From the NCBI GenBank assembly GCA_963784845.1, contig CAWASN010000007.1, forward strand, positions 4,022-68,021: a stretch of DNA of 64,000 nt. The letters run 5' to 3'. The DNA comes from an uncultured Actinomycetes bacterium. Its GTDB lineage: Bacteria > Actinomycetota > Acidimicrobiia > IMCC26256 > PALSA-610. Below the pieces are notes generated by a model that did no database searches, was not told the origin of the DNA, and saw nothing but the letters and a program-made list of their open reading frames with translations. Position numbers and translations under genes: made by a program. Shown here piece by piece: positions 16,815-42,653 of the stretch (position 1 is the first letter of the stretch; each line of letters opens with the position of its first letter).

Positions 16815-16816
16815 GA

Positions 16817-22218: not shown

Positions 22219-22267
22219 GCGGTGAGCCTCGCGTGGCATGGTCTCCGACCACGGTCGCCGGCCGCGC

Positions 22268-23629
22268 TCAGAAGCGGATGTCGACAATGGGCCGCTCGAG
22301 CGGGTTCACGTTGACCGCCGGCAGCGCCGGGAGTAGCTGCTCGTCGGGGAGGCCCGCGAGGTAGCCGTCGATGGTCCGGTGGAAGTTCGAGATGTGGCCC
22401 TCCATCTGCTCGGACAAGCGCATGTACTCGAAGCCCCGGGCGTGGAGACCTTTTTGTTGCCGGGGCAGGTTCGAGAAGTCCTCCGCGGGAATCGGCGGCC
22501 AACGCGGATCGTCGCTCTCCCACGGCTCGGGCGGCGTGGGCTTCCCCGGAGCAGTGCCCTCGGGGAAGCGTGTGAGCGACCAGATCTCCATCAGCGTTTC
22601 CTCCGGTCCCAGCGGCCGGAACCGGTACGAGGAGGCGCTGCTGTACATCGGCAACACGAAGTAGTGCGGGAAGCAGTAACCCATTGGCTCGTTGAGCCCG
22701 TGCGCCTCGAGATCGTTGAGATCGGGGACGTCGGAGCCGGCGGCACGATGCCAGTTCACGACGGCTTCGTTGAGCGCGTGATTCCATGCCGCGACCGCCA
22801 ACGTCGGATCGGCGGGCAGCTCCATGTGGCGTAGGCCCTCGGCGATGCGCACGTCGTTCGCGTGGACCATGCCCGCCATACCGTCGCTCATGGTGCGCAG
22901 GTATCGGATGTCCGCTTCGATGTACGCACGCGGGTCGAAGGGGCCCTTGGGTGGCGCGTACCGGCCGGGGATGCGGAGCTGCGGATGCGTCTGCACCACG
23001 TGGTACTGCTCGACGAACGCCTCTTCGGCAAGCTTCCAGTTCACCGGGAGACGGCACGCGTACCACCACTCGGTTCGCAGGGTCTCCACCTTCCACGCGT
23101 CGAGGGCGGTGGCGATCGGCTCGATGCACTGCCGCAGCGGCGGGGCGTCGTCGTCCAGGTTGATCCATGCGCAGCCGCCCCACACCTCGCACCGCACGGG
23201 CGTGAGGTCGAGGTCGTCGGAGCGGAGGTTGTGTTCCGCGAAGGTCTTTGCCCGCGTGACTGCCGTGTTCTTGCCGTCGGGCCCGTAACGCCACCCGTGG
23301 AACGGGCAGGTGAATTCTTGCTCGCACGTGCCCCGACCCTCGGCGATCCTCACGCCGCGATGGCGGCAGGCATTCTGGAACGCCGTGACTCCCATGTCGT
23401 CGGTACGCAACACGACGATCGACTGATCGAGGAACTCGTACTCGACGAAATCCCGCGGCTGTGGGATCTCTTCCAGCCGGCACGCCATCTGCCAGACACG
23501 AGGCCACAACAACTCGACTTCCATCTGGTAGAAGTCCGAGTCGTAGTAGCGCTCCTTGCGGACGCGGTCCGGGAGCTCGATCGCAAAGGGCACCGGGAGT
23601 GCCGACCACTTCCGATCCGCGATCGCCAC
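22268..23629 (-). CDS. Rieske [2Fe-2S] aromatic-ring-hydroxylating oxygenase, alpha subunit
   Basis: Intact 453 aa with the Rieske motif CRHRG-x17-CPFHGW, followed by a catalytic domain containing EQYHVVQTHP. Confidence 0.9.
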   Translation of the reverse strand: MAIADRKWSALPVPFAIELPDRVRKERYYDSDFYQMEVELLWPRVWQMACRLEEIPQPRDFVEYEFLDQSIVVLRTDDMGVTAFQNACRHRGVRIAEGRGTCEQEFTCPFHGWRYGPDGKNTAVTRAKTFAEHNLRSDDLDLTPVRCEVWGGCAWINLDDDAPPLRQCIEPIATALDAWKVETLRTEWWYACRLPVNWKLAEEAFVEQYHVVQTHPQLRIPGRYAPPKGPFDPRAYIEADIRYLRTMSDGMAGMVHANDVRIAEGLRHMELPADPTLAVAAWNHALNEAVVNWHRAAGSDVPDLNDLEAHGLNEPMGYCFPHYFVLPMYSSASSYRFRPLGPEETLMEIWSLTRFPEGTAPGKPTPPEPWESDDPRWPPIPAEDFSNLPRQQKGLHARGFEYMRLSEQMEGHISNFHRTIDGYLAGLPDEQLLPALPAVNVNPLERPIVDIRF

Positions 23630-23676
23630 GCAACGCCCCCTTCCCTCTCGGAATGCGCTGAGAGGCGACGATATAG

Positions 23677-23696
23677 TAACCGACCGGTCGGTACAA
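23677..23696. promoter_or_regulatory. Recurrent operator-like motif, copy a (palindrome ACCGACCGGTCGGT)
   Basis: The reverse strand reads TTGTACCGACCGGTCGGTTA. It lies between the divergent Rieske (-) and BVMO (+) starts. Confidence 0.5.
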
Positions 23697-23742
23697 TGCG
23701 CCGACGTCTCGCGTGAAGCGCACGGTCACCCTGGAGAGGCAC

Positions 23743-25405
23743 GTGAGCGAAGTAACCGACGTACTGATCGTCGGCGCCGGCATCACCGGCATCTACCAGC
23801 TGTATCGCGCTCGTGAAGCAGGGTTCTCGGTGAAGCTGCTCGAGGCCGGCGATGGCGTGGGCGGTACGTGGTACTGGAACCGCTATCCGGGCACGCGGTT
23901 CGACTCCGAGAGTTACACCTACGGCTACCTCTTCTCGAAAGACCTGTTCGACGAATGGGAGTGGCAAGAGCACTTCGCGCAACAACCGGAAACCGAGCGC
24001 TACATCAACCACGTCGTCGACCGCTTCGACCTCCGGCGCGACATCCGATTCGGCGCGACCGTGACCTCGGCCGTGTACGACGAGGCTTCGGGGACATGGA
24101 CCGTGGTGCTCGCCGGCGGCGCCGAGCTCCGGACGCGCTTCCTCGTCGCCGCGACCGGCGTCTTGTCGGTGCCGTACTTCCCGGACGTGCCGGGCCGCGG
24201 CGACTTTCGCGGCGAGTCGTTCCACACCGGCTTGTGGCCGGCGACGCCGGTCGATTTCGCAGGCAAGCGCGTGGCGGTCATCGGGACCGGATCGAGCGGC
24301 GTGCAGGTGATCCCGTCCATTGCCGGAGCGGTCGCGTCCCTGACCGTCTACCAGCGCACGGCCAACTGGTGTACGCCGCTCAACAACGCACCGATCACAC
24401 CCGAAGAGCAGGCGCAACTCCGGGCGGACTTCGAAGCGATACGCGAGACACTGAACACGTCGCCGAGCGGCTTCCTTCACCCCGTGCACGATCGGGCCAC
24501 TTTCGACGACTCGAGGAATGAGCGCCGCGCCTTCTACGAGAAGATGTGGAACAGCCCCGGCTTCTCGAAGCTGACCAGCCACTACACCGACTTGCTGTTC
24601 GATGAGGCTGCGAACGCCGAGTGGTGCGAGTTCATCGCCGAGAAGATCCGCAGCATCGTCGAGGATCCCGAAACCGCGAGGAAGCTGATCCCGGACGACC
24701 ACCGCTTTGCCGAGAAGCGGCCTCCCTTCGTGACCGGCTACTACGAGGTCTACAACAACCCGAACGTCTCGCTCGTCGATCTCAAAGTGACGCCGATCGT
24801 GCGAATGACCGCGAGCGGGATCGAGACGGCCGAAGGTGAACGCGAGTTCGACATCGTCGTGTGGGCGACCGGGTTCGACTTCGGCACCGGCGCGCTCATG
24901 CGCATGGGGATCCGCGGCCGGGACGGTCTCGCGCTCGAGGACTACTGGGCCGATGGCCCGAAGACGTTCCTCGGCGTCCAGACGCACGGGCTTTCCGAAC
25001 TTTTTCTTCCCCGGTGGTCCGCACGCCGCCGCCGGCAACAATCCGCGGTACAACGGCGACCAGGTCGACTTCATCACCGACACACTCGTGTACCTGCGTG
25101 AGCACGGCTACGACACCATCGAAGTCGATCCGGCCGCGGAAGAGGAGTGGACCAACATGGTCGACACCGGCGCGGCGATGTCGCCGTTCGGGGAGAGCAG
25201 CTACTTCTTCGGGACGAACATCCCGGGAAAGCCGCGCCGCTACCTCCTGAACTCGGGTGGAAGGCCCAAGCTCTTCAAGGTGATCGCCAAAGTTCGCAAG
25301 AACGAGTACAAGGGGTTCCGGCTTTCGCGTTCGTCGAACCCGACGGGAACGACCGCGTCAGACAGTCGCGACCGGAGTCACCGGCGAGCCCACCGCGCCC
25401 GGTAG
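23743..25405 (+). CDS. Baeyer-Villiger (flavin-containing) monooxygenase, one frameshift near 24990
   Basis: GGAGAGG-N3-GTG at 23743. Motifs are VGAGITG, the BVMO fingerprint FRGESFHTGLW, and GTGSSG. The C-terminal third lies in ORF 24836..25405 (FPNFFFPGGPH...). The 3' end is uncertain because it overlaps the convergent cyclase gene. Confidence 0.85.
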
Positions 25406-26416
25406 GCGCAGCGGAGGCGCAGTGAGCAGGAATCGGCTTCGCTCGTGCTCGCGCAGCCATGTCGCGAGCTCGTGGAGATACCACATCTCTCCGAGCGGGA
25501 CGCCGAGCCGGAAGAGGCACAGGTGGTGGATGGGGAGGAACGAGTGCCGGCTCTCGTCGCGATCGCGCCCGACGAGCCCCTCGACCGCGTAGTTGTCCGC
25601 GACCAGCGCCGAGATCTGTGACTCGGTGATCCACTCCAGCAGTGACTCGTCGCGCGCCGTCGAGGTAGGTACACATGGCGTGGATCTTCACGGGATCGGG
25701 TTCGCGGTTCCACTTCAGGATCTCGGTCGCGAACCCGGTGTGCAGCACGAGCATGTCGCCCGGCTCGACCACGACTTGTCGGCCGCCATGATCTCCTCGA
25801 GCGTCTTCAGGTCGACTCCGCGCCAATCGTGGCCGAGGTGGTGGGCCAAGTCGACGAGGACGCCTCGCCCCTGCACACCGTTGTAGGCCATGTGCTCCAG
25901 GCCGAGGTGGTGCGCGAAGCAGAGGTGCTCGCCGCCGTCGCCCGCGGCGTCGGGCTTCGGTCCGACGAGGTCGACCCCGGCGCGGTAACCGTTGTAATAG
26001 ACCGGCTCCTCGATCCCGTCGCCGTCGGCGTCGAACTCGGCGCCGACGTGCGCGAGCGAGTCCCACTGCGTCGAGTACTGCAGCGAGAGCGTCACGACGT
26101 CGTCGGCCCACACGTCGACGTAGCGCGGGTCGCCCCACTCGTCCATCTCGCTCATGTGGACGTTGTAGAACGTGCCGGCATTGCCGCGCATGTCCTCGGT
26201 CGGCGCGAGCATCGGCGGGTAGCGCCGCTGGTTCAGCGCGGTACCGCCGGGGTAGTCGAGCGGCAGGCTGAGGCAGAAGTTGATGCCGGCCTCGACCTCG
26301 CGCACGCCCTGGAGCACCTTCTCGGGGGTGAGCAGGTTGATGCGGCCGAGCTCGTCGTCGTCGCCCCAATCGCCCCACGTCGAGCCGGGCGGGCGCTGCT
26401 TCCACCGCTTCGTCAC
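25358..26416 (-). CDS. Putative cyclase / kynurenine-formamidase-like family protein (2 frameshifts)
   Basis: ORF 25715..26416(-) gives MTKRWKQRPPGSTWGDWGDDDELGRINLL...STQWDSLAHVG. It continues as VVEPGDMLVLHTGF in the 25275 frame, then as ARDESLLEWITESQISALVADNYAVEG...MWYLHELA in a third frame, with a stop at 25358. Confidence 0.7.
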
Positions 26417-26455
26417 GGCTTCCTCCCCTTCCGACGCAACCGTCCGCGCGTTGTA

Positions 26456-26473
26456 TTGTACCGACCGGTTGGT
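26456..26473. promoter_or_regulatory. Recurrent operator-like motif, copy b
   Basis: TTGTACCGACCGGTTGGT lies between the divergent cyclase (-) and amidohydrolase (+) starts. Confidence 0.5.
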
Positions 26474-26544
26474 TTATCGTCGATGTCACCTCGCGACGTC
26501 GAGTCGCAGCACGTCCGCGTGTTTCGCGCAGGAAGGTCGCAACG

Positions 26545-27813
26545 ATGACCCAGAAGGACTTCGTCGTCTCCGCCGACGGGCACCTTCTCGAGCCCACCGA
26601 CCTGTTCCGCACCCGTCTCCCGAAGCACCTGCGCGACCGCGCCGTGTGGGAGGAGGACTTCGAGATCGAGCCACTCGTCGAGGGCGGCGCCCGGATCTTC
26701 CGGCAGTTGCACACGCCGGGGTACGAAGGCTGGACGATCTCTCGGTATCGCCAGACCGGCGGGCGGATGCCGGAAGGCGATCCCGAGCACATCCTCGAGC
26801 GACATGGACCTCGACGGGGTCGACGTCCAGGTGATGCACCCGAACCTGTCGCTTGTTCGGGCTCTACTCCGACGACCACGAGCTGTCGATGGCGCACGCC
26901 CGCGTGTACAACGACTACGTCATCGAGCGGTTCGCGCCGTACTTCTCGCGGTTGGCGCCCACTGCTCCGGTGCCGCTGACCGACATCGACGACGCGGTCG
27001 CCGAGATCGAGCGCGTCGCCGCCGGCGGGTTCCGAGCGATCCTGCTCCCGGCGACCCCGCCGCAGCCGTACTACTCGCGGGCGTTCGACCCGGTGTGGGC
27101 GGCGGCGCAGGCCAACGGCATGCACGTGTTCATCCACACCCAGACCGGTGGCGTGAAGGTCGACGACGCGACCGCGACGACGCTCAAGGTCGTCATGGAA
27201 CAGGCGGCGCAGGTCAACCAGCCGATGACCGAGAAGTCGGCCTCGAAGCGGATGATCACGCAGTGCGTCTACGGCCCGATCGTCCCGCAGCAGGTCATGT
27301 GCGAGCTGATCGGCGGCGGCGTCGCCGAGCGCTACCCCGACCTGCACTTCGCGCTCATCGAGTTCAACGCCCACTGGTTGGCGTCGCTGGTGGGGAGCAT
27401 GGACAAGTGCTGGGTCACCGGGATCGGCCAGGACGCCGACTGGTGGCTCGGGTACTGGGACGACGACCGCCCCGCCGACGACCAACCGGGCATGGCGCAG
27501 CTGTTCCGCCTGAACGACAAGTGGCCCTACCCGCTGATGCCGAGCGAGTACGTGCGGCGCCAGTTCCACGTGTCGTTCCAGGACGACCCGGTGGCCGTCG
27601 CCTGCCGGCACGTCACCGGGTTGTCGACGATCGTGTGGGGCAACGACTACCCGCACGCAGAAGGCACGTTCCGAGGGAGCCGAGAGCTGATCGCGAAAGC
27701 AGCTCGGCGATCTCCCTGCCGACGAGCGGGCCGCCCTCGTCGGTGGCACCCTCGGCGGGGCTCCTCGGGTTCGAGGCGCCGCAGCTGGCAGCCGTTCCGG
27801 GGGCTCGTTGTAG
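26545..27813 (+). CDS. Amidohydrolase_2 family protein (at least 3 frameshifts)
   Basis: MTQKDFVVSADGHLLEP, then MDLDGVDVQVMHPN, then ORF 26853..27905 with WGNDYPHAEGT. The likely stop is TAG at 27811 after a G-run, so the 3' end is approximate. Confidence 0.75.
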
Positions 27814-27858
27814 TTCCCGCTCGTGCTGCACCGCCGAAACGTCCGGTACGACCCGACG

Positions 27859-28517
27859 ACTACTCGGCGCCCGTGAGCCGTCGGGAGTGGCGATCCCGCG
27901 GATGAAGATGTCGGCGAACGGCTTGAGCGACGTCCTGCGCCGACAAGCGGACCGCCCGGCTTCAGCCACAGGTACGTGTAGTTGTGCATGCCGAGCCACG
28001 CGAGAGCCGTGAGCCTCGGGTCGACGTCGCGGAACTCGCCGGTGTCGATGCCGTCCTGCACGACCGACTCGACCCGTCGCTCGTACTCCCGCCGCCGCAC
28101 GCGGAACTGCTCGGCGCGGTACGTCGGTGAGCGCGGGGAACTCGTGCAGGAAGACCCAGACGTGGTCCGGGTAGCGGTGGATGACGTCGAGCAGCTCGTC
28201 GCCGAGCATGGCGAGCGCGCCGACGGCGACCCGCCCGCCTCCGCGACGCGAGCGGCGCCGAGCATCACCTCGTCCATCACCCGATCGTGGATGGCGGCGA
28301 GGAGCTCCTCCTTCGACTCGATGTAGTGATAGAAGGCGCCCTTGCCGAGACCGTTGACCGCGCACAGCTCCGCGATGCCCGTGGCGTGGTAGCCCTGCCG
28401 CGCGAAGACCGGCGCCGAGGTGTCGACGATCACGTCGCGACGCGCCTTCCACTTCGCGCTGCGCCGGGGCTCGTCGCTCGCGGCGGCGGTGGCATCGGCT
28501 GCAACGGTCCAGCGCAC
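27859..28517 (-). CDS. TetR family transcriptional regulator (several frameshifts)
   Basis: GTG at 28517. The HTH reads RRDVIVDTSAPVFARQGYHATGIAELCAVNGLGKGAFYHYIESKEELL. The C-terminal domain is split between the 25275 and 27613 frames (DPRLTALAWLGMHNYTYLW; FADIFIRGIA). The 3' end is approximate. Confidence 0.7.
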
Positions 28518-28535
28518 GAGCCCAAAACTATAGTG

Positions 28536-28549
28536 ACTGGTCGGTACAA
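28536..28549. promoter_or_regulatory. Recurrent operator-like motif, copy c
   Basis: The reverse strand reads TTGTACCGACCAGT. It lies between the TetR (-) start at 28517 and the SDR (+) start at 28570. Confidence 0.5.
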
Positions 28550-28569
28550 CCGTCACAGCAGGGCTACGG

Positions 28570-29492
28570 GTGAACGAGCACGGCTTCCAGGGGCGCGTCG
28601 CGGTCGTCACGGGTGCGGGACGCGGTATCGGCCGGGCCCATGCACTCCTGCTCGCCGAGCGGGGCGCGCGCGTCGTCGTCAACGACCTCGGCGGCTCGAT
28701 GTCGGGCGTCGGAGCCGACGCCGAGACCCGCGTCGACCGTCGCCGCCGAGATCGTCGGCCGCGGGCGGAGTCGCGATCGCCGACAACAGCGACGTCGCGA
28801 CGGCGACAGGTGCCCAGGCGCTCGTCGGATGCGGCGGTCGAGCAGTTCGGACGCGTCGACATCCTGGTCAACAACGCCGGCATCATCCGATGGGCGCGCT
28901 TTCCCGAAGCCGACGCGGACAATCTCGCGCGGCACCTCGCCGTGCACGTCGCGCGGCTCGTTCAACACGACCCGCGCCGCGTGGCCGCACATGGTCGAAC
29001 AGGGGTACGGCCGCATCGTCATGACGACGTCCGCAGGGATGTTCGGACTGCCCGACAACCTCTCCTACGCCACCGCCAAGGCCGGCGTCATCGGGCTCAC
29101 GCGCAGCCTCGCGACCGCCGGCGCCGCGCACGGCATCAAGGTCAACCTCATCGCACCCGCGGCGGTCACGCGCATGGCGGGCCGGAAAGCGGACGACGGG
29201 GATGCGGGCGGCGAGGCCGTTGCTCCGCAAATGGCGCCAGATCTCGTCGCACCGATGGTCGCCTTCCTCGCCCACGAGGACTGCCCGGTCAGTGGCGAGA
29301 TCTACGCCGCCGGCTGCCGGTCGCTTCGCGCGCATCTTCATCGCCTCGACGAGGGGTTACGTCCACTCCGAGCCGCACCCGACGATGGAGGACGTCGCGG
29401 AGAACTGGGCGACGATCAACGACGAGACCGGCTACTACGTCCCCGCCGACCTCACCGCCTGGTCCGGCGCATTTATGACACACCTGGCCTGA
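28570..29492 (+). CDS. SDR family oxidoreductase with C-terminal extension (many frameshifts)
   Basis: GRVAVVTGAGRGIGRAHALLLAERGARVVVNDLGG, then VDILVNNAGI, then YATAKAGVIGLT (YxxxK). The tail ...YVPADLTAWSGAFMTHLA is assembled from three frames. Confidence 0.75.
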
Positions 29493-29515
29493 CACACCTG
29501 GCCTGACACACCTGG
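29479..29515. repeat. 14-nt tandem repeat CACACCTGGCCTGA x2.6
   Basis: Read directly. Copy 1 contains the SDR stop codon (..THLA*), copy 2 repeats it in a different frame, and the third copy is partial. Confidence 0.8.
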
Positions 29516-29539
29516 GTCATGAAGGTCCGGTTCGGCGAC

Positions 29540-30140
29540 CTACGTCGAACGGCCGGACCTCCCGCCGGAGGGGTCGAGGAACTGCTCGACGAACGCGAGT
29601 GCCCGGTCGTGGCCACCGCTCACACCGAGCGCCCGCTCGAGACCGATGAGCTGCGAAACGCCCGCCATGGCCACGAGGACCACCTCGGGTGTGATTCCGT
29701 CCGGCAACGGTTCGCGCGCGCGGCGAGGATGGACGAGATCGCCGCGAGCTGCATGGTCCGGAAACGTTCGGCGTAGCTCGCGATCTCCGCGCGACCGCCT
29801 TGCGGTGGTTGGCGAGCGCGACGAACTCGAGGTTGAACGCCGAGCCGGGTCCGGCGTTCAACGAGCTCCAGATCGTGCGGAGCGAGGGCTGCACCTCGAT
29901 TGCCTGCTCGAACTGCGCGAGGCCCTCCTCGGCGCGGCGACGGAACACCTCGAGAAAGAGATCGTCCATCGTCCGGAAGTAGTAGTGGACCAGTTGCGGG
30001 CTCGAGGCCGGCCCTTCGGCCTACTCGCCGTGACGTGACCGCCGCGTAGCCCTCCTCCAGGATCAGCTGCTCGGCCGCGTCGAGCAGCCGGGCGCGCGGT
30101 CAGCGAGTCCGTGCGCCCCGATTCTTCGTCGCGAAGCCAT
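29540..30140 (-). CDS. TetR family transcriptional regulator (frameshifts)
   Basis: ATG at 30140. Reading ..LLDAAEQLILEEGYAAVTSRRVA..QLVHYYFRTMDDLFLEVFRRRAEEGL.. and the tail ..VSQLIGLERALGVSGGHDRALAFVEQFLDP requires frame switches. Confidence 0.7.
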
Positions 30141-30177
30141 CGGCACCACCTTGCCATGCGCGGCCACCCGTGTTAGG

Positions 30178-30207
30178 CAGTCGCACAACATTGTGCAGTC
30201 GCACAAC
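30178..30207. promoter_or_regulatory. Tandem CAGTCGCACAAC repeats with palindrome GCACAA-CA-TTGTGC (putative TetR operator)
   Basis: The 12-mer occurs at 30178-30189 and 30196-30207, and the perfect inverted repeat spans 30183-30196. They lie between the TetR (-) and P450 (+) starts. Confidence 0.5.
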
Positions 30208-30230
30208 GTTGCGTGGCGAGAGGGGACCGG

Positions 30231-31524
30231 GTGGCGGACGACTGGGAGACGTCGGACTTCTTCAGCGACGAGTCGCTCGTCGAGGACCCGTATCCCTACT
30301 TCGAGCAGCTGCGCGCGACCTGTCCGGTGGTACCGCTCGGCCGTCACGGGGTGGTGGCGGTGACCGGCTACGACGAGGCGACCGAGGTCTACCGCGACGT
30401 CGACACGTTCTCCTCGTGCAATTCGGTGGTCGGTCCGTTCGCAACGTTCCCGGTACCGCTCGAGGGCGACGACGTGGGCGCCATCATCGATCGTTACCGC
30501 GACCAACTGCCGATGCACGAGCACATGGTCACGATGGACCCGCCCGCGCACACACAGGAACGAGCGCTGCTGATGCGGCTGATCACGCCGAAGCGGCTCA
30601 AGGACAACGAGGAGTTCATGTGGCGCCTCGCCGATCAGCAGCTCGACGAGTTCATCGGCGGCGGCCACTGCGAGTTCATCAGTGCGTACGCCCAGCCCTT
30701 CGCCATGCTCGTCGTCGCCGATCTGCTCGGAGTGCCGGAAGAGTGATCACCGGCGGTTCCGGGAATGGTTCGGCCTGAGCCGCAATCCCGGCGAGATCGG
30801 CGCCGGCTGAGCAGAGCGACCCCGAGCTGAACGCGCTCGGGTGGCTCGACGATCGGTTCGCGCACTACATCGAGGACCGGCGGCGCGAGCCGCGCGAAGA
30901 CGTGCTCACCCACCTCGCGCTCGCGACCTACCCGGACGGGACGACGCCCGAGGTCATCAACGTCGTGCGAACGGCCACGTTCTTGTTCGCCGCCGGTCAG
31001 GAGACGACCGCGCGCCTGCTCGCCGCCGCGTTGAAGTACCTCGCCGAGCACCCCGAGCTCCAAGACGACCTGCGGGCGGACCGCGACCTCATTCCGAACT
31101 TCCTCGAAGAGGTGCTCCGTATCGAGAGCCCGGTGAAAGCCGACTTCCGTCTCGCCCGGCCGACCTGCGACCGTCGGTGGCGTCGACGTCGCGGCGGGCA
31201 CACCCGTCATGCTGCTGAACGGCGCCGCCAACCGCGACCCGCGGCGGTTCGAGTGCCCCGCCGAGTTCCGGATCGACCGCCCCAACGCCCAGTCTCACAT
31301 CGCCTTCGGCCGGGGCAACCACTCCTGTCCCGGCGCGCCGTTGGCGCGCGCCGAGGGCCGGGTCAGCCTCGAACGCATCCTCGACCGGATGCGCGACATC
31401 CGGCTGTCCGAGGAGCACCACGGCCCGCCGGGCGCGCGCCGCTTCGGCTATGCGCCGACCTGGGTGCTGCGCGGCCTCGCCGAGCTGCACCTCGAGTTCA
31501 CGCCCGTCGAGGGCGGTCCGGTGA
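30231..31524 (+). CDS. Cytochrome P450, paralogue 1 (several frameshifts)
   Basis: GAGAGGGG precedes the GTG at 30231. Recognisable segments are DPYPYFEQLR, FSSCNSVVGPF, AGQETT (I-helix), ESPVK (ExxR region) and FGRGNHSCPGAPLA (heme Cys loop). The end is taken at a hidden TGA in a GTGA overlap with the next gene. Confidence 0.8.
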
Positions 31525-32265
31525 GCCGTGTCGCGGTCGTCACCGGCGGGGCGTCCGGCATCGGGCTCGGTGTCGCCGGCCGGCTCGCCGCCGGCGGCGA
31601 CCACGTCGCCGTCCTCGACCTGAACGGCGCCGCGGCCCGGAAGGCGGCGGCCGAGCTGCAGTCCGAGGGCGCCCGGGCCGTCGGCGTCGAGGTCGACGTT
31701 GCCGACACCGGTGCAGTCGATGCCGCGTTCGCCGCAAGTTCGCGCCGAGCTCGGACCCGTCGAGATCCTCGTCACCAGCGCGGGGATCGAGTCGTTCGAT
31801 CCGCTCCTCGACATCACGGCCGAGCTGTGGGACCGGATCCTCGCGGTCAACCTCACCGGTACGTTCCGCTGCGTCCAGGCGGCCGTGCCCGACATGCTCG
31901 CCGCCGGATGGGGCCGCATCGTCACCATCTCGTCCTCGAGCGCGCAATCGGGGGCACCCGACATGGCGCACTATGCCGCGTCCAAAGGCGGCGTCATCGC
32001 TCTCACCAAAGCGCTCGCCGTCGAGCTCGCGCGCCGGGGGATCACCGCGAACACCGTCGCGCCGAGCCTCGTCGACACGCCCATGGCAAGAGCCGCCGAA
32101 GCCGCAGGTGACTTTCCCGGTGTCGACGTCGTCGGCCCGATGGTGCCGCTCGGCCGGGCGGGGACGGCCGCCGACATCGCCTCCGCGTGTGCCTTCCTGT
32201 GCGGCGAGGGCGGGAGCTACATCACCGGCCAGATCATCGGTGTCAACGGCGGCATGTACATCTGA
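31521..32265 (+). CDS. SDR family oxidoreductase (FabG-like), one frameshift near 31735
   Basis: VAVVTGGASGIGLG, NAG-like SAGI, SSSSAQSG...YAASKGG (YxxxK), and the tail GQIIGVNGGMYI. It is a paralogue of 46200..46944. Confidence 0.8.
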
Positions 32266-32279
32266 GGTGCTCCGGTGAC

Positions 32280-32318
32280 GAACTCGGGTGGCGAACTCGG
32301 GTGGCGAACTCGGGTGAC
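32280..32318. repeat. 13-nt tandem repeat GAACTCGGGTGGC x3
   Basis: Read directly. The third copy ends GAC. It lies in the 78-nt convergent spacer between the SDR and the acyl-CoA synthetase. Confidence 0.8.
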
Positions 32319-32343
32319 GCGGTCGACGCCGCGATCGCGCTCC

Positions 32344-33903
32344 TTACGGTGTTCGGTTCCGCAGCTCTCGCTTCAGGACCTTGCCCGAAGGATTCCTCGG
32401 GAGCTCGTCGACGAGGATCACCTGCTTCGGAACCTTGAAGCGCGCGAGCTGCGCGCGGCAATGCTCGATGAGCTCCTCGGGAGTCGTCGATGCCGTCGAG
32501 CTCGACACGACGTAGGCGACCGGGACCTCGCCCCATCGATCGTCGGGACGCCCGACGACGGCGGCTTCGACCACCGATCCGTGCTCGTAGAGCACACGCT
32601 CGACCTCGGAGCTCGCGATGTTCTCTCCGCCGGACACGATCATGTCCTTGAGTCGATCGACGATGTAGAGGTATCCGTCGTCATCCTGCAGGCCGATGTC
32701 GCCGGTGTGGAACCAGCCGCCGGCGAACGCTGCAGTCGTCGCGTCGGGGTCCGCCAGTAGCCCTGGAACACCTTCGGGCCGCGCAGGACGACCTCGCCGC
32801 GCTCACCCGGCGGCACCGAGGCTCCGTGTTCGTCCCAGATGTCGAGCTCGAGGTACTGGCACGGGCCGGCCGACACTTCCGAGCTTGGACACGCGTGCTC
32901 GTCGCGGTCGAGGAAGGTGTCGCCCGACACGGTCTCGGTCAGGCCGTACGCATCGGCGAACCACGCGGACGGGAAGGTTGCGCGCAGGCGTTCGATGAAC
33001 GGAATCGGCATCTTCTCCCCGCCGGCGATGATCAACCGAACCGACGACAGGTCACGCTGTTCGATCTCCCGGTACGCTCGAGGATCGCGCGGACCATCGC
33101 GGGAGCGGTCCACATCGTGGTCACGCGGGACCGCTCGATCTCGTCGACGACGCGCTCGGCGTCGAAGGTGCGGTGGATGATCGGTGGTCGCGCCCACCGC
33201 GATCATCGTCGTGGTGACGAGGTCGAGCGCACCGACATGATAGAGCGGGCCGCAAGCCAGACCGACGTCGGCGCTGGTGAATCCGAACTCGGTGATGTGC
33301 GCGTAGTTCTTCCAAGCCAGGTTGGCGTGGGTGATCATGACGCCCTTCGGGCGGCCGGTTGTTCCGGACGTGTACATCAGCCGGTGGATGTCGTCGCCCC
33401 GGAGGTGAGCCCGGGCGCGGCGAGCGGAGTCGGAGCCCAGATCGGAGAAGCGTTCCCAGCCTTCGTGAACCTCGGTCGAGCTACACACGCGCACGAGGTC
33501 ACGGCCAAGATCGCCGGTCGCTTCGTTCGCGAGCTCGATGCAGGTCGTCGTCGCACACGAGCGCGCGCGCTTCGGAGTGTTCGAGGATGAAGCGCAGCTC
33601 CGGTGCCGCGAGCCGCCAGTTGACGGGCATCGCGATCGCACCGGCGTGGTTGGCGGCGAAGATCGTGACCAGGAACTCGATGCTGTTGTACGAGAGCAGC
33701 CCGACCACGTCTCCGGCACCGACTCCTCGCGCGCGGAGTCCGGCCGCCACCGTCGCAGCCCGATCCGCCATTCCCCGATAGGTGACGACCTGGTCGCCGA
33801 AGACGGCAAGCGGCTTGTGCGGCGTGCGGCGCGCGTGGTGCTCGAGCACCGCGAGCCAGCTCATGTCCGGATGCATCGGGGGCTCGAGCCGGTCTGAACT
33901 CAT
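32344..33903 (-). CDS. Acyl-CoA synthetase / AMP-binding enzyme (several frameshifts)
   Basis: ATG at 33903 (MSSDRLEPPMHPDMSWLAVLEHHARR). Motifs are YTSGTTGRPKGV, GYGLTE-like AYGLTET, and the C-terminal SGGENIASSEVE...PRNPSGKVLKRELR. Confidence 0.8.
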
Positions 33904-33914
33904 GGACGCAACTC

Positions 33915-34663
33915 CTACGGCGCCGCGTATCCGCCGTCGACGACGATCGCGGATCCGGTGGTCCAGCGGGACGCGTCGCCGGCGAGGTACGAGTAAGCGC
34001 CGACGAGGTCGGCAGCAGTCCCGAGCCCGAGCGGGTGCTTGGCCGCGATCGCGTCGATCGCCTCGGGCGGGAGGTCGGCGTGGATGCCGGAACGAAACGT
34101 TCCGGGGCACACGCAGTTGACCCGGATCCCGTCGCGCGCGTACTCGACCGCCGCGACCTTCGCGAGTTGGATCACCGCGGCCTTCGTCGCGCAGTAGGGA
34201 GCCGCGTGTGACCACGCGGTGAGACCGGAGACCGACGCCGTGAGGACGATCGAGCCCGACTGCTGGGCCCGCATGACGGGCACCGCGGCGCGGATGCCGT
34301 TGACCGCGCCGAGGACGTTGACCCGGAACGCCCGCTCCCAGTCCTCGGTCGTGAGGTTGTGGATGCGACCGTTCGGGGAGAGCACGCCCGCGTTGCTGAT
34401 CAGCACGTCGAGCCGGCCGAATCGCTCCCGCGCCACGCCGACGACGGCTTCGACCTCGGTGATCTCGCTCACGTCGGCGCGCAGGGTCTCGACCGCGCCC
34501 CGCTGCTCCGGCAACGCCGTTCACGGTCGCTTCGAGCGACGATGCGCTGACGTCGCTCAGCACGACGTCGGTCTCCGGTTCGCCCGCGAACTGCCCGGAC
34601 AAGCGCCGCCCCGAGCGTTCCGCCCGCGCCGGTGATCACGATGACCCGCCGAGGTTGGCTCAT
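33915..34663 (-). CDS. SDR family oxidoreductase (frameshifts near the 5' end)
   Basis: MSQPRRVIVITGAGGTLGAA reads from the ATG at 34663. The body lies in ORF 33915..34514(-), with VLISNAGV, YCATKAAV and VVDGGYAAP. Confidence 0.8.
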
Positions 34664-35442
34664 ACGAGCAGATACCCGCCGTCGACGTTGAGCACGGTGC
34701 CGGTGACGAACGCGGACGCGTCGGAGGCGAGGAACTGATAGGCGCCGGCAAGGTCGGTGGATGCGCCCCAACGCCGTTGCGCGGTGTGCCCGAGCACGCC
34801 GGCTCCGAGCTCGGGGTCGTTCTTCCAGCGCTCGGCCAACGGCGAGTCGAACCACCCCGGAGCGACGACGTTCACCGTGATGCCCGACGACGCGAGATCG
34901 AGTGCGAGACCCTTCGCCATGCCGACGAGACCGGCCTTCGAGGCGCTGTACGCGATGAGGCCTCGGCGCGGCCGTTCGCCCAGGACCGAGCCGGTGAAGA
35001 TCAGCCGCCCGCCGGCGCGCATCACCCGGGCGGCCGCGCGCGCGCCCGAGGAACGCACCGGTGAGGTTCACGTCGAGAATCTCGCGCCAGACCGACGGAG
35101 TCGGTCTCGAGCGGTCCGGCGAGGACGGGCGAGATCCCGGCGTTGCAGATCCACACGTCGACGCCGCCCCACTCGGCCACGGTGGCGTCGGCGACCGCCT
35201 CGTTGAACGTCGCCGTCGGTCACGTCGCCGCAGAGCACGAGGGACGGCCCCGGGAGCTCCGCGGCGACCGCTTTGAGGTCGGTCTCGGTCCGCGCCACCA
35301 GCGCCACCCGCGCGCCGCCCTGCGAGAACGCGTGCGCGAGCAGCCGGCCGAGCCCCCGGCCGGCGCCGGTGATCACCACACGCTTCCCGGTCACGTCCGC
35401 AGCACCGGCGAAGGACGCGGGGATCTCGATCTGCTCGGGCAT
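34660..35442 (-). CDS. SDR family oxidoreductase (two compensating frameshifts)
   Basis: GGGAAGGG precedes the ATG at 35442. Motifs are GKRVVITGAGRGLGR, NAGI (middle part in another frame), YSASKAGLVG and LNVDGGYLLV. The stop overlaps the next start (ATGA). Confidence 0.8.
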
Positions 35443-35538
35443 CGCCCTTCCCTGCTTGTTCCGTGCTGGTTCCGTGGTGGTTCCGTGCTTGGTCCGCGGT
35501 TGCTCGGCGCGCACGCAGCGGTGGGCTTCCCACCCGAT

Positions 35539-35556
35539 TTGTACCGACCAGTACAA
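35539..35556. promoter_or_regulatory. Recurrent operator-like motif, copy d
   Basis: TTGTACCGACCAGTACAA has TTGTAC/GTACAA arms. It lies between the SDR (-) start at 35442 and the E1-alpha (+) start at 35567. Confidence 0.5.
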
Positions 35557-35566
35557 TACACGGTCC

Positions 35567-36580
35567 ATGTTCAGCGACGCCGACCTCCTCGAGATGCACC
35601 GGCGGATGCTCGTGATCCGCGGGTTCGAGGAGCGCGTCGCTGCGCTCTACCGCGACGGCGAGGTCCCGGGCTTCGTGCACCTGTCGATCGGGCAGGAGGC
35701 CTCGGCCGTGGGCGCGTGTTGGCCACTCGGCCCGACCGACGTGATCACGTCGACCCATCGCGGCCACGGCCACTGCCTCGCGAAGGGTCTCGACCCGCTC
35801 GGGATGTTCGCCGAGCTGATGGGCAAGGACGGGGGCACGAACCGCGGGCGCGGGCGGTTCGATGCACATCGCCGATCCGACGATCGGCATCTTCGGCGCC
35901 AACGGGATCGTCGCTGCCGGCCTGCCGATCGCGGCGGGCGCGGCGACCGCGGCGCAGTTGCGACGCGACGGCACGCGTCGCGGTGGCGTTCTTCGGCGAC
36001 GGCGCGGTCGGCGCACGGCACGTTCCACGAAGCGATCAACCTCGCCGCGGTCTGGCAGCTGCCGGTGATCTTCTTCTGCGAGAACAACGGCTACGCGGAG
36101 TTCTCGCCGGCGGCGGCCCAGCACGCGGCGCCGCTCGAACAGCGCGCCGGCGGGCTACGGCGTCGACTACGTCGCGGTCGACGGCAACGACGTCGTGGCG
36201 ACCGCGGCCGCGATGAGCGTCGGTCGTCGAGGCGGCGCGCGCCGGGACGCGGTCCCGTCGTCGTCGAGGCCACCACCTACCGCTGGCACGGTCATTACGA
36301 AGGCGACCCGCAGCGCTACCGATCGCCCGATGAGCTCGAGGAGTGGAAGGCACGCGACCCGCTGCTCGTCAGCGCGCGCCGGCTCCGGTCGGCGGGCATC
36401 ACCGACGACGCGCTCGAATCCATGCAGGCGTCGGTCGCGCGCGAGCTCGACGACGCGGTCGAGGCGGGCTCGGCGCTTGTCGCCGCCGGCGGCTGCGACG
36501 CTGACCGACTTCGTCGTCCGCGCCGCGACCCGAACGCCCCGAGCCGCCCGGCCCCGCCGGCCGACGCGCCGGAGTTCCGC
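35567..36580 (+). CDS. Thiamine-diphosphate-dependent 2-oxoacid (pyruvate/acetoin/BCKA) dehydrogenase E1 alpha subunit (frameshifts; 3' end approximate)
   Basis: MFSDADLLEMHRRMLVIRGFEERVAALYRDGEVPGFVHLSIGQEA, then GGSMHIADP..GANGIV, then FFGDGA...PVIFFCENNGYA, spread over three frames. Confidence 0.7.
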
Positions 36581-36583
36581 ACG

Positions 36584-37541
36584 ATGGACGCGATCCGAGC
36601 CGCGCTCGAAGCCGAGCTCGCGGGCGACGAGCGTGTGTTCGTCGCGGGGATCGACGTCGCGGCCGGCGGCAACGTGTTCGGCCTGATGCGCGGTCTGCAC
36701 GACCGCTTCGGCGATCGCGTCCGCGACACGCCCATCTCCGAGAGCGCGATCGTCGGCCTCGGCGTCGGCGCCGCGATGGCGGGCATGCGTCCCGTCGTCG
36801 AGCTGATGTATCTCGACTTCCTCGGCGTGTGTCTCGACCAGCTGCTCAACCAGGCCGCGAAGTTGCCGTTCATGACCGGCGGCGCCGCGCAGATGGCGCT
36901 GACCGTGCGGACCCAGTTCGGCGCGGGCCGCTCGTCGGGAAGCCAGCACTCGCAGAGCCTCGAGGCGCTGCTCGCGCACATCCCCGGGTTGACCGTCGTG
37001 ATGCCGTCGACCCCGGCTGACACGTACGGGTTGCTGCGCGCCGCGATCCAGGACCCGAACCCGGTCGTGTTCATCGAGAACCGGTTGCTCTACGGCATGA
37101 AGGGACCCGCAGCCGCCGGCCGACCACATCCTCCCGATCGGCACGGTCGGCCGTCGTGCGACCGGGAAGCGACATCACCGTCGTGTCGGTCTCGCGGATG
37201 GTGCACGAGGCGGTCGCCGCCGCCGAGCGTCTCGCGGCGAGGGCATCTCCGTCGAGGTGATCGACCTGCGAACCGTCGCCCCGCTCGACATGGCGCCGAT
37301 CCTCGACTCGGTGCACAAGACGAGCCGGCTCTTGATCGCGCACGAGGCCGTCGTCCCGTTCGGCATCGGCGCCGAGATCGCCGCGACGGTCGCGCGCGAC
37401 GGCTTCTGGGATCTCGACGCGCCGATCCAACGCATCGGCGCGGCGCCGACTCCGCCTCCCTACGCGCCCGAGCTCGAACGCGCGTGGCTGCCCGACCGCG
37501 ACGACATCGCCGAGGCGATCCGCCGCCTCGCGCGCGTCTGA
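36584..37541 (+). CDS. 2-oxoacid dehydrogenase E1 beta subunit (frameshifts)
   Basis: ATG at 36584 after GGAG. MDAIRAALEAELAGDERVFVAGIDV...DTPISESAIVG...FIENRLLY, and the C-terminus VIDLRTVAPLD...IRRLARV in ORF 37257..37541. No E2 or E3 gene is present in the window. Confidence 0.75.
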
Positions 37542-37552
37542 GCGCGAAGCGT

Positions 37553-38708
37553 TCAGCAGCCGAGGGCGCGGGCGATCACGACGTGCTGGATCTCGTTGGT
37601 GCCTTCGCCGATCTCGAGCACCTTGGCGTCGCAGTAGAAGCGGGCGACCGGCGAGTCGAGCATGTAGCCGAGGCCGCCGTGGATCTGCACGGCTTCCGAT
37701 GCCGCCGCAGACCGCGAGGCGGCTGGCCTTCAGCTTCGCCATCGACGCTTCCTTGAGGAAGGGCTGCCCGGCGTCGCGCAGGTACGCGGCGCGATACGTG
37801 AGCCACCGTGCCGCCTCGAGCTCGGTCGCGATGTCGGCGAGCTTGAACTGGATCGCCTGGAACTTCGAGATGGGCTGGCCGAACTGCACGCGCCCGTGCG
37901 CGTAGTCGATCGCCAGGTCGAGCACGGCCTGGGTCAGGCTGAGCGACAACGCGGCGATCGAGATGCGCCCGACCTCGAGCGTGCGCAGGAACTGGCTGAG
38001 CCCCATCGCCGGGATCGCCGACGAGATGATCGTCGGCGACCCAGACGTCGTCGAAGTACAGCTCGCGGGTGTCGAGACCGCGCCAGCCGATGCCGCGCAT
38101 CTTCGGGCCCATCGTGAAGCCGGCGGTGTCCTTCTCGACGACGAAGCTCGCGAACGTCGGGTGCCGGGTCCTCGCCCGACTCGGTGCGGGCCAGCAGCGT
38201 CACGCCGAACGACATGTCGGTGCCGGCGTTGGAGATGAACGCCTTGCGGCCGTTGATCAGCCAGCCGCCGTCGCGCCGGACGCGCCCGCGTTCGGATGCC
38301 GCGGCGCGTCGGAACCGGCGTCGGGCTCGGTCAAACCGAACGCGCCGAGGACGCGTCCCTCGGCCAAGCGGGCGCAGCCAGCGCTCGCGCTGCGCGTCGG
38401 AGCCGAAGAGGTACAGCGGCAACGAGCCGATGGTCACGTGCGCCTGCCACGCGGCGGCCACCGACTGGTCGGCCAGGCCGATCTGCTCCATCGCGGCGAC
38501 GAAGCCGACGGTCGACATGCCGATGCCTCCCCATCGCTCGGGGATCAGCATGCCGAGCAGGCCCAGCGCGCCCATCTCGCGGAGCAGGTCGGTCGGGCAC
38601 CGCGCCTCCTCCCACGCAGCGGGAGCACGCGCCGCGATCTCCTTCTGCGCGAACTCGCGGCACAGGCGCGACAAGGTCGCGTTCCGGCTCGGCGAGCGAG
38701 AAGTCCAC
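37553..38708 (-). CDS. Acyl-CoA dehydrogenase (several frameshifts)
   Basis: GTG at 38708 (MDFSLAEPERDLV). Further segments are GLLGMLIPERWGG, WLINGRKAFISNAG, QFGQPISKFQAIQFKLADI, and the tail IHGGLGYM...EIGEGTNEIQHVVIARALGC. Confidence 0.8.
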
Positions 38709-38721
38709 GCGGCCGATCCTA

Positions 38722-38739
38722 TTGGACCGACCGGTACAA
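38722..38739. promoter_or_regulatory. Recurrent operator-like motif, copy e
   Basis: TTGGACCGACCGGTACAA lies between the ACAD (-) start at 38708 and the P450 (+) start at 38762. Confidence 0.5.
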
Positions 38740-38761
38740 CGCCTGCTATCGATATCGCCCT

Positions 38762-40057
38762 GTGACCGACTACGACGCGATCGACTTCTTCCGAGGCGAC
38801 GAGCTCGTCGCCGACCCGTACCCGTACTTCGAGTGGCTGCGCGGGCAGTGCCCGGTGCGGCGCGAACCCCATCACGGCGTGATGATGGTGACCGGGTACG
38901 ACGAAGCGGTCGCGGTGTACAACGACACCGACACGTTCTCGTCGTGCAACTCGCCGACCGGGCCCTTCCCCGGGTTCCCCGTGACGCTCGAGGGCGACGA
39001 CGTCACCCCGCTCATCGAGCAGCACCGTGAGCGAGCTCCCGATGAGCGACCAGCTGCTCACGTTCGACCCGCCGATCCACACCGCGCACCGTGCGCTGCT
39101 CATGCGCCTGATCACGCCGAAGCGCCTGCGCGAGAACGAAGAGTTCATGTGGCGGCTCGCCGACCGCCAGATCGACGAGTTCATCGATCGCGGCGACGGC
39201 GAGTTCATCCGCGGGTTACGGCCAGCCGTTCGCCATGCTCGTCGTCGCCGACCTGCTCGGCGTGCCGGAGAGCGATCACGAGCTGTTCCGTGAGCGGCTC
39301 GGCGCCGGGCCGAGCGCGACGGACCGGCACCGTCGGCAGCACGGGCGACGACGCGCTCGCGGACAACCCGCTCGAGTTCCTCTACGAGCAGTTCACCGCG
39401 TACATCGAGGACCGCCGGCGCGATCCGCGCGACGACGTGATGACGGGTATGGCGACCGCGACGTTCCCCGACGGCTCGATCCCTGAAGCCATCGACGTCG
39501 CGCGCATCGCCGCCAATCTCTTCGCCGCCGGCCAGGAAACGACCGTTCGCCTCTTCGGCACCGCGCTGCAACGTATCGGCGACGACCGGGAGCTCCAGGG
39601 CCGGCTGCGCGAGCACCGTGAGCACATCCCGAAGTTCGTCGAGGAATGCCTGCGCATCGAGAGCCCGGTGAAAGGTGACTTCCGGCTCGCGCGCGTGACG
39701 ACCGAGCTCGGTGGCGTCAAGATTCCGGCGGGCACCACGCTCATGGTGGTGAACGGAGCCGCGAACCGCGATCCCGGCCGTTTCGAGCACCCCGACGACT
39801 TCCAGGTCGAGCGCGCCAACGCGTCGCCAGCACCTCGCGTTCGGTCACGGCGCCCACACCTGTCCCGGCGCCCCGCTCGCGCGCGCCGAGGGCCGCATCA
39901 CCATCGAGCGATTGCTCGACCGGGTGCGACAACATCCGGGTCTCCGAGAAGGAGCACGGCCCCGAAGGCGCCCGCCGTTACGAGTACGTGCCGACCTACA
40001 TTCTGCGTGGCGTCAGCCGTCTGCTACCTCGAGTTCGACCCGCGCGTCCCTCGATGA
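38762..40057 (+). CDS. Cytochrome P450, paralogue 2 (several frameshifts)
   Basis: GTG at 38762 ([27 protein letters not shown]). Further segments are [31 protein letters not shown], and the heme loop [14 protein letters not shown] in another frame. The tail is [11 protein letters not shown]. Confidence 0.8.
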
Positions 40058-40226
40058 CGTGCCGTGACGGCCCGAGGACTCGGGTGCGCCGCCGGCTCGG
40101 TGCCCGGCTCCGTGGCTTCGTAGATCATTGACGCGAGGGTGCGAACCGCCTTGCGCGGTCCCTGCGATAATGCCATTCTCTCTGGATGAGTGCAGCAATT
40201 CCGCAGCGTGGAGCACGGGGGTCTCG

Positions 40227-42597: not shown

Positions 42598-42653
42598 GGT
42601 GGAGCACCCATTTCCATTTTTGCACGGTAGCAGCGCTCTCGGATGAGAACGAC

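Follow-up and report, generated by a model that had tools for sequence, protein, structure and literature searches.

Five boxes in divergent spacers as putative operators of one TetR-family repressor in an uncultured member of the Acidimicrobiia

Boxes and genomic setting

The DNA analysed here, called the window throughout, is a stretch of 64 kb from an uncultured bacterium of the class Acidimicrobiia (contig CAWASN010000007.1, assembly GCA_963784845.1). It carries five copies of a 14-bp box, TTGKACCGACCRGT, each placed in a short spacer between divergently transcribed genes. The boxes are regarded here as putative operators of one TetR-family repressor, TetR-A, which is encoded among them; a probability of about 80 % is given to this reading. 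That TetR-A actually binds the boxes and represses from them is what we infer from sequence comparisons.

The window has a G+C content of 68 % and is rich in single-base frameshifts, and plain lists of open reading frames were broken or spurious. Gene models were obtained with a codon-usage segment finder, fragments being stitched by hand; the Viterbi frameshift state was never entered. The five gene pairs named in a previous reading made from the letters alone (hereafter the sequence-only reading), namely Rieske/Baeyer-Villiger monooxygenase (BVMO), cyclase/amidohydrolase, TetR/short-chain dehydrogenase (SDR), SDR/E1-alpha and acyl-CoA dehydrogenase (ACAD)/cytochrome P450, were indeed divergent. 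Start codons together with Pfam or NCBIfam gene calls placed all five boxes in the short spacers between them, as had been claimed, with spacer lengths of 52 to 127 bp (Table 1).

The gene set under the boxes was composed of oxygenase, SDR, E1 and acyl-CoA enzymes. SDR2, the acyl-CoA synthetase and SDR3 presumably form one operon, as indicated by their common strand and short gaps, and the P450 unit rightward of site 5 may be continued by a SnoaL-like gene (40221-40736) and an amidohydrolase gene (40846-41895). The flavin monooxygenase matched a PtlE-like NCBIfam model with 242 bits, under its cut-off. No NCBIfam match above any curated cut-off was obtained for the regulator or the enzymes, which is why the pathway cannot be named. 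The sequence-only reading had announced at least ten oxygenase and beta-oxidation genes. The oxygenase genes were present and the count was larger, about 14 to 16 with operon partners, but the set was not a plain beta-oxidation set. A phenylacetate (paa) regulon was considered and rejected, no paa gene being encountered among the window proteins scanned or read.

Table 1. Coordinates of the boxes, of the flanking genes and of the TetR genes in the window
Feature	Coordinates	Strand	Sequence or assignment	Remarks
Site 1	23679-23696 (14-mer 23683-23696)	-	TTGTACCGACCGGTCGGT; exact match; 28.3 bits	113-bp spacer, Rieske start 23629 to flavin monooxygenase start GTG 23743
Site 2	26456-26473 (14-mer 26456-26469)	+	TTGTACCGACCGGTTGGT; exact match; 30.0 bits	between cyclase start GTG 26416 and amidohydrolase start ATG 26545
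Site 3	28532-28549 (14-mer 28536-28549)	-	TTGTACCGACCAGTCACT; exact match; 26.3 bits	52-bp spacer, TetR-A start 28517 to SDR start 28570
Site 4	35539-35556 (14-mer 35539-35552)	+	TTGTACCGACCAGTACAA; 18-bp inverted repeat; exact match; 27.6 bits	SDR2 start 35442 (-) to E1-alpha start ATG 35567
Site 5	38722-38739 (14-mer 38722-38735)	+	TTGGACCGACCGGTACAA; 18-bp inverted repeat; exact match; 23.8 bits	ACAD start GTG 38709-38707 (-) to P450 start GTG 38762
SnoaL-like protein, after Rieske	21826-22251	-	SnoaL_4	leftward unit of site 1 (21826-23629)
Rieske oxygenase alpha subunit	22271-23629	-	Pfam Rieske, Ring_hydroxyl_A	leftward unit of site 1
Flavin monooxygenase, BVMO type	23743-25318	+	Pfam FMO-like, Pyr_redox_3	rightward of site 1; one frameshift
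Cyclase-family protein	25424-26416	-	Pfam Cyclase (PF04199)	leftward of site 2; frameshifted
Amidohydrolase_2 protein	26545-27905	+	Pfam Amidohydro_2	rightward of site 2
TetR-A	27860-28517	-	TetR_N, TetR_C_24	GTG start 28517, stop 27862-27860
SDR1	28570-29478	+	Pfam adh_short	rightward of site 3; frameshifted
SDR3	32356-33074	-	Pfam adh_short_C2	leftward unit of site 4
Acyl-CoA synthetase	33077-34508	-	NCBIfam models 1e-147, under their cut-offs	leftward unit of site 4
SDR2	34678-35442	-	Pfam adh_short_C2	leftward unit of site 4 (32356-35442)
2-Oxoacid dehydrogenase E1 alpha + E1 beta	35567-37538	+	Pfam E1_dh, Transket_pyr, Transketolase_C	rightward of site 4; frameshifted
ACAD	37559-38709	-	Pfam Acyl-CoA_dh_N, _M, _1	leftward of site 5; frameshifted
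Cytochrome P450	38762-39990	+	Pfam p450	rightward of site 5
TetR-B	~29517-30150	-	no TetR_C_24	
TetR-C	41923-42600		no TetR_C_24	
TetR-D	5446-6076		no TetR_C_24	

The 14-mer belongs to an 18-bp inverted repeat, TTGTACCG-AC-CGGTACAA, whose core is TACCG-N2-CGGTA, and is the better conserved portion of it. The repeat is near perfect at sites 4 and 5; sites 1 to 3 display one arm in extended form and the core of the second. Measured against TACCGNNCGGTA, site 3 has two mismatches and each of the other four sites has one at most. Site 1 includes the perfect palindrome ACCGACCGGTCGGT at 23679-23692 and can alternatively be read within a 22-bp palindrome, TTGTACCGACC/GGTCGGTACAA. An exact-match search of the window located all five strings at the positions named in the sequence-only reading. 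At site 1 the string and its palindrome were found as described, the start given (23677) lying 2 nt too far to the left of the true one (23679).

Five exact matches to the 14-mer were thus present in 64 kb, and 100 dinucleotide-preserving shuffles yielded a mean of 0.00 and a largest count of 0. Allowing two mismatches added only two matches, one of them weak and located at 7349, the other being site 5 read on the opposite strand. An 18-column weight matrix built from orthologous sites of other genomes gave the five sites 23.8 to 30.0 bits and the next best match 13.2 bits; three of the five next-best matches were readings of these same sites on the opposite strand or in an offset register. 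All strong matrix sites lay within 15 kb around TetR-A. None was found in the other 49 kb of the window, including the radical-SAM/peptide locus ("RiPP", ribosomally synthesised and post-translationally modified peptide), from which the motif had already been reported missing.

A 1-mismatch version of the generic TACCG-N2-CGGTA palindrome, TACCGGGGGGTA, occurs at 18339-18350, in the gap between the genes at 16386-18007 and 18634-19260. This match probably does not represent a sixth site: its matrix score is low and about one such match is expected by chance.

The candidate regulator

The stitched TetR-A, a protein of 214 aa for which the sequence-only reading had the right coordinates, displayed an N-terminal TetR_N domain (PF00440, 7.3e-11, residues 31-77) and a full-length C-terminal match to TetR_C_24 (PF17932, 1.7e-32). 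It was 91 % identical to an intact orthologue of 210 aa (P0002), which was used for a search of PDB chains. The best matches were 3DCF from Thermobifida (E 2.8e-24), PfmR (3VPR, 5.7e-21), AibR (5K7F, 1.2e-18) and KstR2 (4W97, 1.6e-9). The alignments with PfmR and AibR spanned about 185 residues, and identity between TetR-A and PfmR amounted to 29 %. As judged from domains and relatives, TetR-A is classed as a member of a PfmR/AibR-like TetR_C_24 subgroup.

Recognition helix 3 reads GLGKGAFYHY in TetR-A, MTKAGLYHH in AibR and LSKAALYHH in PfmR (HMMER alignment), the lysine and the tyrosine being kept. Such a Lys/Tyr pair is common among TetRs, and its retention is supportive only as regards recognition of the box by TetR-A. 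In the C-terminal domain, the AibR residues contacting coenzyme A (CoA), His114, Lys131/132, Tyr134, Tyr171 and Lys175, are matched in the orthologue by H, R/R, Y, Y and K, and Trp169 and Lys172 align with Y and L. Because several of these contacts align, a CoA thioester is proposed as the effector, and TetR-A probably responds to an acyl-CoA.

The TetR-A gene of the window is interrupted by five frameshifting 1-nt indels relative to four orthologues, none of them in long homopolymers. The gene might therefore be a relic, a pseudogene whose boxes are left unoccupied and whose former target genes are constitutive or decaying; the consistency of the indels against all four orthologues and the fragmentation of many neighbouring genes are both compatible with that. 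Against decay, the protein apart from its indels retains the 91 % identity mentioned above without any in-frame stop, and the boxes are perfectly kept. Single-base frameshifts, which the sequence-only reading had missed, moreover split a large share of the genes, of all kinds and window-wide, into two to six fragments each (for example 32356-34508, 38762-39990 and 51800-63000), a pattern that fits error-prone long-read assembly better, and metagenome-assembled genome (MAG) projects of this type are the source of many related genomes. Since the corrected protein is so similar and stop-free, and since fragmentation affects all kinds of genes, the indels are most likely assembly errors, and a relic is considered quite improbable.

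TetR_C_24 was detected by Pfam in TetR-A only; the three other TetRs of the window, TetR-B, TetR-C and TetR-D, belong to other types and were set aside as regulators of the boxes. The spacer between TetR-B and a P450 gene (30225, plus strand) displays, at 30177-30211, two 17-nt direct repeats, GCAGTCGCACAAC(A/G)TTG, and an 11-nt inverted repeat, CAACATTGTGC/GCACAACGTTG, distinct from the five boxes. These elements are probably TetR-B's own putative operator. The three P450 paralogues of the window (30225-31730, 38762-39990 and 60076-61110) have very similar N-termini (..DFF..DPYPYFE..L); a box is found upstream of the one at 38762 only, and the one at 30225 is paired with TetR-B.

Conservation in related genomes

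Stitched TetR-A had 3576 homologues at E <= 1e-10, the best of which were 80 to 91 % identical. A scan limited to one genome per species gave 462 relatives of this TetR, from which 80 loci were kept with 10-kb flanks, representing 1.41 Mb. Almost all were MAGs of Acidimicrobiia (Acidimicrobiaceae, Microthrixaceae, Iamiaceae), many of them from long-read MAG projects. The loci were chosen via the TetR itself, so that co-occurrence of repressor and box is partly built into the sample. The closest of the compared loci displayed 85 to 93 % nucleotide identity to the window, and the repressor was 75 to 91 % identical across several families.

The core ACCGACCRGT was found in 215 copies in the 1.41 Mb, against 13 to 23 in Markov simulations (about 13-fold enrichment), and at least one copy was present in 79 of the 80 loci. 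Under a crude coding mask, 73 % of the core copies and 80 % of the TGTACCGACCRGT copies were non-coding, non-coding DNA making up about 10 % of the sequence. A similar density inside coding sequence, which the sequence-only reading had named as evidence against its proposal, was therefore not what the 80 loci displayed. As indicated by the sequence logo, TTGTACCGACC(G/A)GT was near invariant and was followed by a variable arm and then by an A/T-rich, -10-like stretch.

A box within 320 nt upstream was found for the orthologues of the cyclase in 55 of 64 loci, of the amidohydrolase in 56 of 65, of the Rieske oxygenase in 30 of 35, of the BVMO in 36 of 51, of E1-alpha in 41 of 63 and of SDR2 in 40 of 58. 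Alignments of orthologous spacers (16, 39, 27, 29 and 34 for sites 1 to 5, respectively) identified the box as the best-conserved non-coding block at all five positions; TACAATA at site 4 and GATCCTA at site 5 were kept alongside. Gene order varied between families and the box stayed with the same promoters. In a separate assembly, GCA_003153095.1, which encodes an intact TetR of 210 aa, the same neighbourhood was encountered, with boxes in four of the same spacers (P450/ACAD, E1/SDR, SDR/TetR and amidohydrolase/cyclase).

The TetR genes themselves were less uniform. Among 68 loci, a box lay 20 to 135 nt upstream of the orthologous TetR gene in 17 (with 0 to 3 mismatches to the 14-mer, not the strict core) and about 870 nt upstream, separated from it by another gene, in about 12; the rest had none within 1.1 kb.

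This last result could indicate that the boxes are real operators bound by a protein encoded beyond the window, a PfmR-like TetR or some other regulator, with TetR-A as no more than one of the targets. Only 64 kb of the genome are visible, and two TetRs of Thermus, TTHB023 and TTHA0167, are known to share overlapping sites (PMC7022988). On the other hand, the boxes cluster around TetR-A in the window as well as in the 79 orthologous loci, and TetR-A is a member of the subgroup known to bind the core. In the motif-selected metagenome stretches that were long enough to judge, among the matches listed, TetR-A lay about 850 nt from the box. A regulator from outside is considered unlikely.

These stretches came from a motif-first metagenome scan with ATTGTACCGACCRGT (14 fixed bases) as query, which listed 80 stretches. 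Among the matches listed, 51 of the 80 were low-GC chance matches and 10 reproduced the Rieske/BVMO and E1 contexts; as evidence, the scan adds little. In two of the metagenome contigs, Ga0209320_10000104 (L109, 3023-3036) and Ga0209341_10002019 (L123, 8593-8606), from a lineage of 64 % GC, a distant TetR gene (33 % identity in the helix-turn-helix) was preceded at about 45 nt by a perfect palindrome, TTGTACCGACCGGTCGGTACA. The same box would therefore be used for putative autoregulation outside the group of TetR-A orthologues.

Some further features of these loci were recorded. The E1-alpha/E1-beta/ACAD block between sites 4 and 5 (35538-38740) displayed 83 to 93 % nucleotide identity to many species-level genomes; several of the alignments began and ended at the two boxes or a few nt from them, and the position of the block relative to the TetR gene varied by family. 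The spacer between SDR2 and E1-alpha contained an 11-bp tandem repeat, TTCCGTGCTGG, in 3.8 copies (35448-35500), within an insertion of about 75 bp that the majority of the 29 aligned orthologous spacers lacked. In the closest intact relatives (L081, 10664-17351; L082, 7051-13738), a P450 and an ABC transporter of the branched-chain-amino-acid type (Peripla_BP_6, BPD_transp_2, ABC_tran) were located between the TetR and the amidohydrolase. A gene similar to that of the binding protein is present in the window at 19515-20874, outside the box-bounded region.

Promoter architecture and proposed mechanism

The promoter elements at the boxes are predicted ones. A sigma-70 scan of 23400-39000 (15.6 kb) returned only two promoter-like sites, the shuffle mean being 0.6. 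In the predicted TetR-A promoter, GTGACG-18-TATAGT (28556 to 28527, minus strand), site 3 is located between the -35-like and the -10-like hexamers, in agreement with the earlier statement that the promoter of the TetR gene carries a copy of its own. In the predicted cyclase promoter, TCGACG-17-TACAAT (26483 to 26455, minus strand), site 2 occupies the spacer and the -10 hexamer.

Hexamers of the type TANNNT adjoin every box, on both strands at site 1. The right arm of site 4 overlaps the -10-like hexamers TACAAT/TATTGT; on the minus strand of site 5 the box is followed by TAGGAT, 7 nt and a GTG. A promoter for the P450 at 38762 was not evident, no TANNNT hexamer being found on the plus strand at site 5. 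Sites 1, 2 and 4 are associated with TAnnnTA heptamers (23672-23678, 26454-26460 and 35552-35558; another is found at 28527-28534), which provide -10-like hexamers on both strands with an offset of 1 nt. At sites 2 and 4 the TTGTA/TACAA operator arm is itself part of the heptamer, which is kept in orthologues at site 4 and not at site 2. This TAnnnTA geometry is known from symmetric bidirectional promoters in which 18 bp separate the two start sites (PMC10268837). The start codons of E1-alpha, ACAD and TetR-A lie 7 to 9 nt past a -10-like hexamer, which suggests leaderless or near-leaderless messages.

The asymmetry of the motif at three sites, with a -10-like hexamer next to it on the same strand, could also be expected from a promoter element of an alternative sigma factor or from a repeated intergenic element without any regulator. 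Between TTGTAC and the nearest -10-like hexamer there are 7 to 13 nt, depending on the site. A fixed -35 element does not allow such variation, and the motif was rejected as one. Moreover, the core forms the same inverted repeat as in proven TetR operators, and its position is kept in orthologous spacers across families, unlike that of a mobile repeat. A sigma-factor element or a regulator-free repeat is therefore regarded as highly improbable.

Under the reading of TetR-A as the common repressor, its dimer would recognise TACCG-N2-CGGTA, extended here to the full 18-bp repeat. In the AibR-DNA crystal 5K7Z, Lys47 reads GG and Tyr51 reads T of each CGGTA half-site (PMC5389471), and the lysine and tyrosine of helix 3 in TetR-A would do likewise. 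Each box is predicted to lie in the core of back-to-back promoters, either between the -35 and -10 hexamers, on the -10 itself or on the predicted start. Because of this position, a bound dimer would occlude RNA polymerase both ways and shut both divergent units at once, the TetR-A gene included. The controlled set would comprise about 14 to 16 genes: Rieske oxygenase with its SnoaL-like partner, BVMO, cyclase, amidohydrolase, three SDRs, acyl-CoA synthetase, E1 alpha and beta, ACAD, P450 and TetR-A. Relief would most likely come from a CoA thioester of the pathway, for example one made by the co-regulated acyl-CoA synthetase, which would bind the C-terminal domain and free the repressor.

Strength of the assignment and significance

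The proposal of the sequence-only reading that a single regulator, the TetR at 27859-28517, governs the five promoters gains support from the domains of TetR-A, the box shared by its relatives, the site in its own promoter and the conservation of the boxes. Several points weigh against it. The indels in TetR-A, if real, would mean that the repressor is dead in this genome. That TetR-A shares its box with PfmR is plausible and not guaranteed, given an identity of 29 % and a Lys/Tyr pair of wide occurrence. Autoregulation is not a general trait of the orthologues, since about half of their genes lack a box in the 1.1 kb upstream of them. Elsewhere in the genome, beyond the 64 kb, there may be a second paralogue of the PfmR-like type. 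The sampling of loci through the TetR, mentioned above, belongs here too, and for this organism the assignment draws on sequence. Finally, the TetR SACE_1906 of Saccharopolyspora erythraea responds to acetaldehyde and not to a CoA ester (PMC12890868), and AibR makes the direction of the ligand effect uncertain, as it binds DNA only with isovaleryl-CoA bound (PMC5389471).

If TetR-A behaved like AibR, its third-closest solved relative, which binds the same core under that restriction, it would be a ligand-dependent co-repressor on the five boxes and a CoA ester would switch the genes off. The genes under the boxes look catabolic (oxygenases, acyl-CoA synthetase, ACAD), which argues against such a switch. 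Genes of this kind are usually induced by their substrate. In vitro, no added ligand is needed for PfmR to repress transcription (as described in PMC7022988), and phenylacetyl-CoA is described as inducer of Thermus PaaR (PMC4424350). Co-repression by a CoA ester is thus considered improbable.

With TetR-A as a classical repressor, the mechanism is textbook TetR repression and the result a useful annotation rather than a surprise. It is a well-known type of switch, here in uncultured soil and water Acidimicrobiia with an uncharacterised set of oxygenase and acyl-CoA genes. Acidimicrobiia are known mostly from MAGs, and to our knowledge there is almost no experimental genetics in the class, for which TetR-A and its boxes provide a concrete and testable regulon. 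One highly conserved repressor and a near-invariant box tie together conserved oxygenase, dehydrogenase and acyl-CoA genes. Expression of the repressor and a CoA-ester screen on the five ready operators would be a short route to the substrate of the pathway.

A broader view is offered tentatively, as a possibility with the odds against it. TetR-A and the box might form an Acidimicrobiia-wide regulon for an uncharacterised, oxygenase-rich and CoA-dependent catabolism (Rieske, BVMO, P450, cyclase, amidohydrolase, E1 alpha/beta without E2, ACAD), with operators fused to symmetric -10 hexamers that gate both directions and an effector CoA thioester not previously known to be sensed. If so, screening ligands against this single conserved repressor could uncover the substrate of a pathway that is widespread among uncultured actinobacteria of soils and fresh waters.

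Comparison with known systems

Some source databases label TetR-A orthologues "cholesterol catabolism regulator", a name that suggests KstR2; this identity was rejected for TetR-A. The relation to mycobacterial KstR2 (4W97) was much weaker than that to PfmR or AibR (E 1.6e-9), and the KstR2 motif, AnCAAGnnCTTGnT (PMC3068626), differs from the box. It had no exact match in the window and two 1-mismatch matches, both outside the five spacers.

PfmR (TTHB023, 3VPR) of Thermus thermophilus HB8 is the closest characterised solved relative of TetR-A and displays the same operator core. Its operator consensus is given as TACCGACCGNTNGGTN in PMC7022988. In-vitro selection led to a palindrome of the TACCG-ry-CGGTA type, genomic sites such as TTTACCGACCGGTTGG were bound at 0.3 to 7 nM, and the sites cover core promoter elements (-10 and +1) as well as the promoter of the regulator itself; ACADs, SDRs and an acyl-CoA ligase are among the members of its regulon (PMC7022988). 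In contrast to PfmR, which comes from a different phylum and shares 29 % identity with TetR-A, the outer arms here are TTGTA...TACAA, and the regulon adds Rieske, BVMO, P450, cyclase, amidohydrolase and E1 genes in divergent pairs.

AibR from Myxococcus xanthus (5K7F, 5K7H, 5K7Z) recognises an 18-bp operator, ACCTACCGGTCGGTAGGT, and its target is a biosynthetic operon (PMC5389471). On the complementary strand of that operator, TACCGACCGGTA presents the 12 bases found in sites 4 and 5, and the base-reading lysine and tyrosine together with several CoA-contacting residues are kept in TetR-A or its orthologue. The outer operator arms differ, and unlike the AibR target the catabolic-looking regulon of the window suggests classical induction.

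Two further systems are likened to TetR-A by their boxes. The paa repressor BCAL0210 is compared on the box alone: the inverted repeat of the Burkholderia cenocepacia paaA promoter, ACCGACCGGTCGGT, whose mutation relieves repression and which is located between -35 and -10 of several promoters, one divergent pair included (PMC2770484), is identical to the site 1 palindrome. Its targets are paa genes, none of which was encountered among the window proteins scanned or read. The predicted occlusion by TetR-A matches in position both this repeat, between -35 and -10, and the PfmR sites, over -10 and +1. The actinobacterial SACE_1906 shares the core and, like site 3, a divergent TetR/dehydrogenase layout. 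It represses its own gene and a divergent dehydrogenase gene, and its footprints in the spacer that separates the two contain CACCGGTCGGTATA; its targets include erythromycin and propionyl-CoA carboxylase genes, and its reported effector is acetaldehyde (PMC12890868), in contrast to the CoA thioester proposed here.

Further literature searches for variants of the box yielded no additional characterised regulators. The motif is to be read not as a new element but as the operator type already established for the PfmR/AibR-like TetR subgroup. With the boxes described here, the spread of TACCG-N2-CGGTA alongside related TetRs is extended and includes Deinococcota, Myxococcota, Betaproteobacteria and two classes of Actinomycetota.

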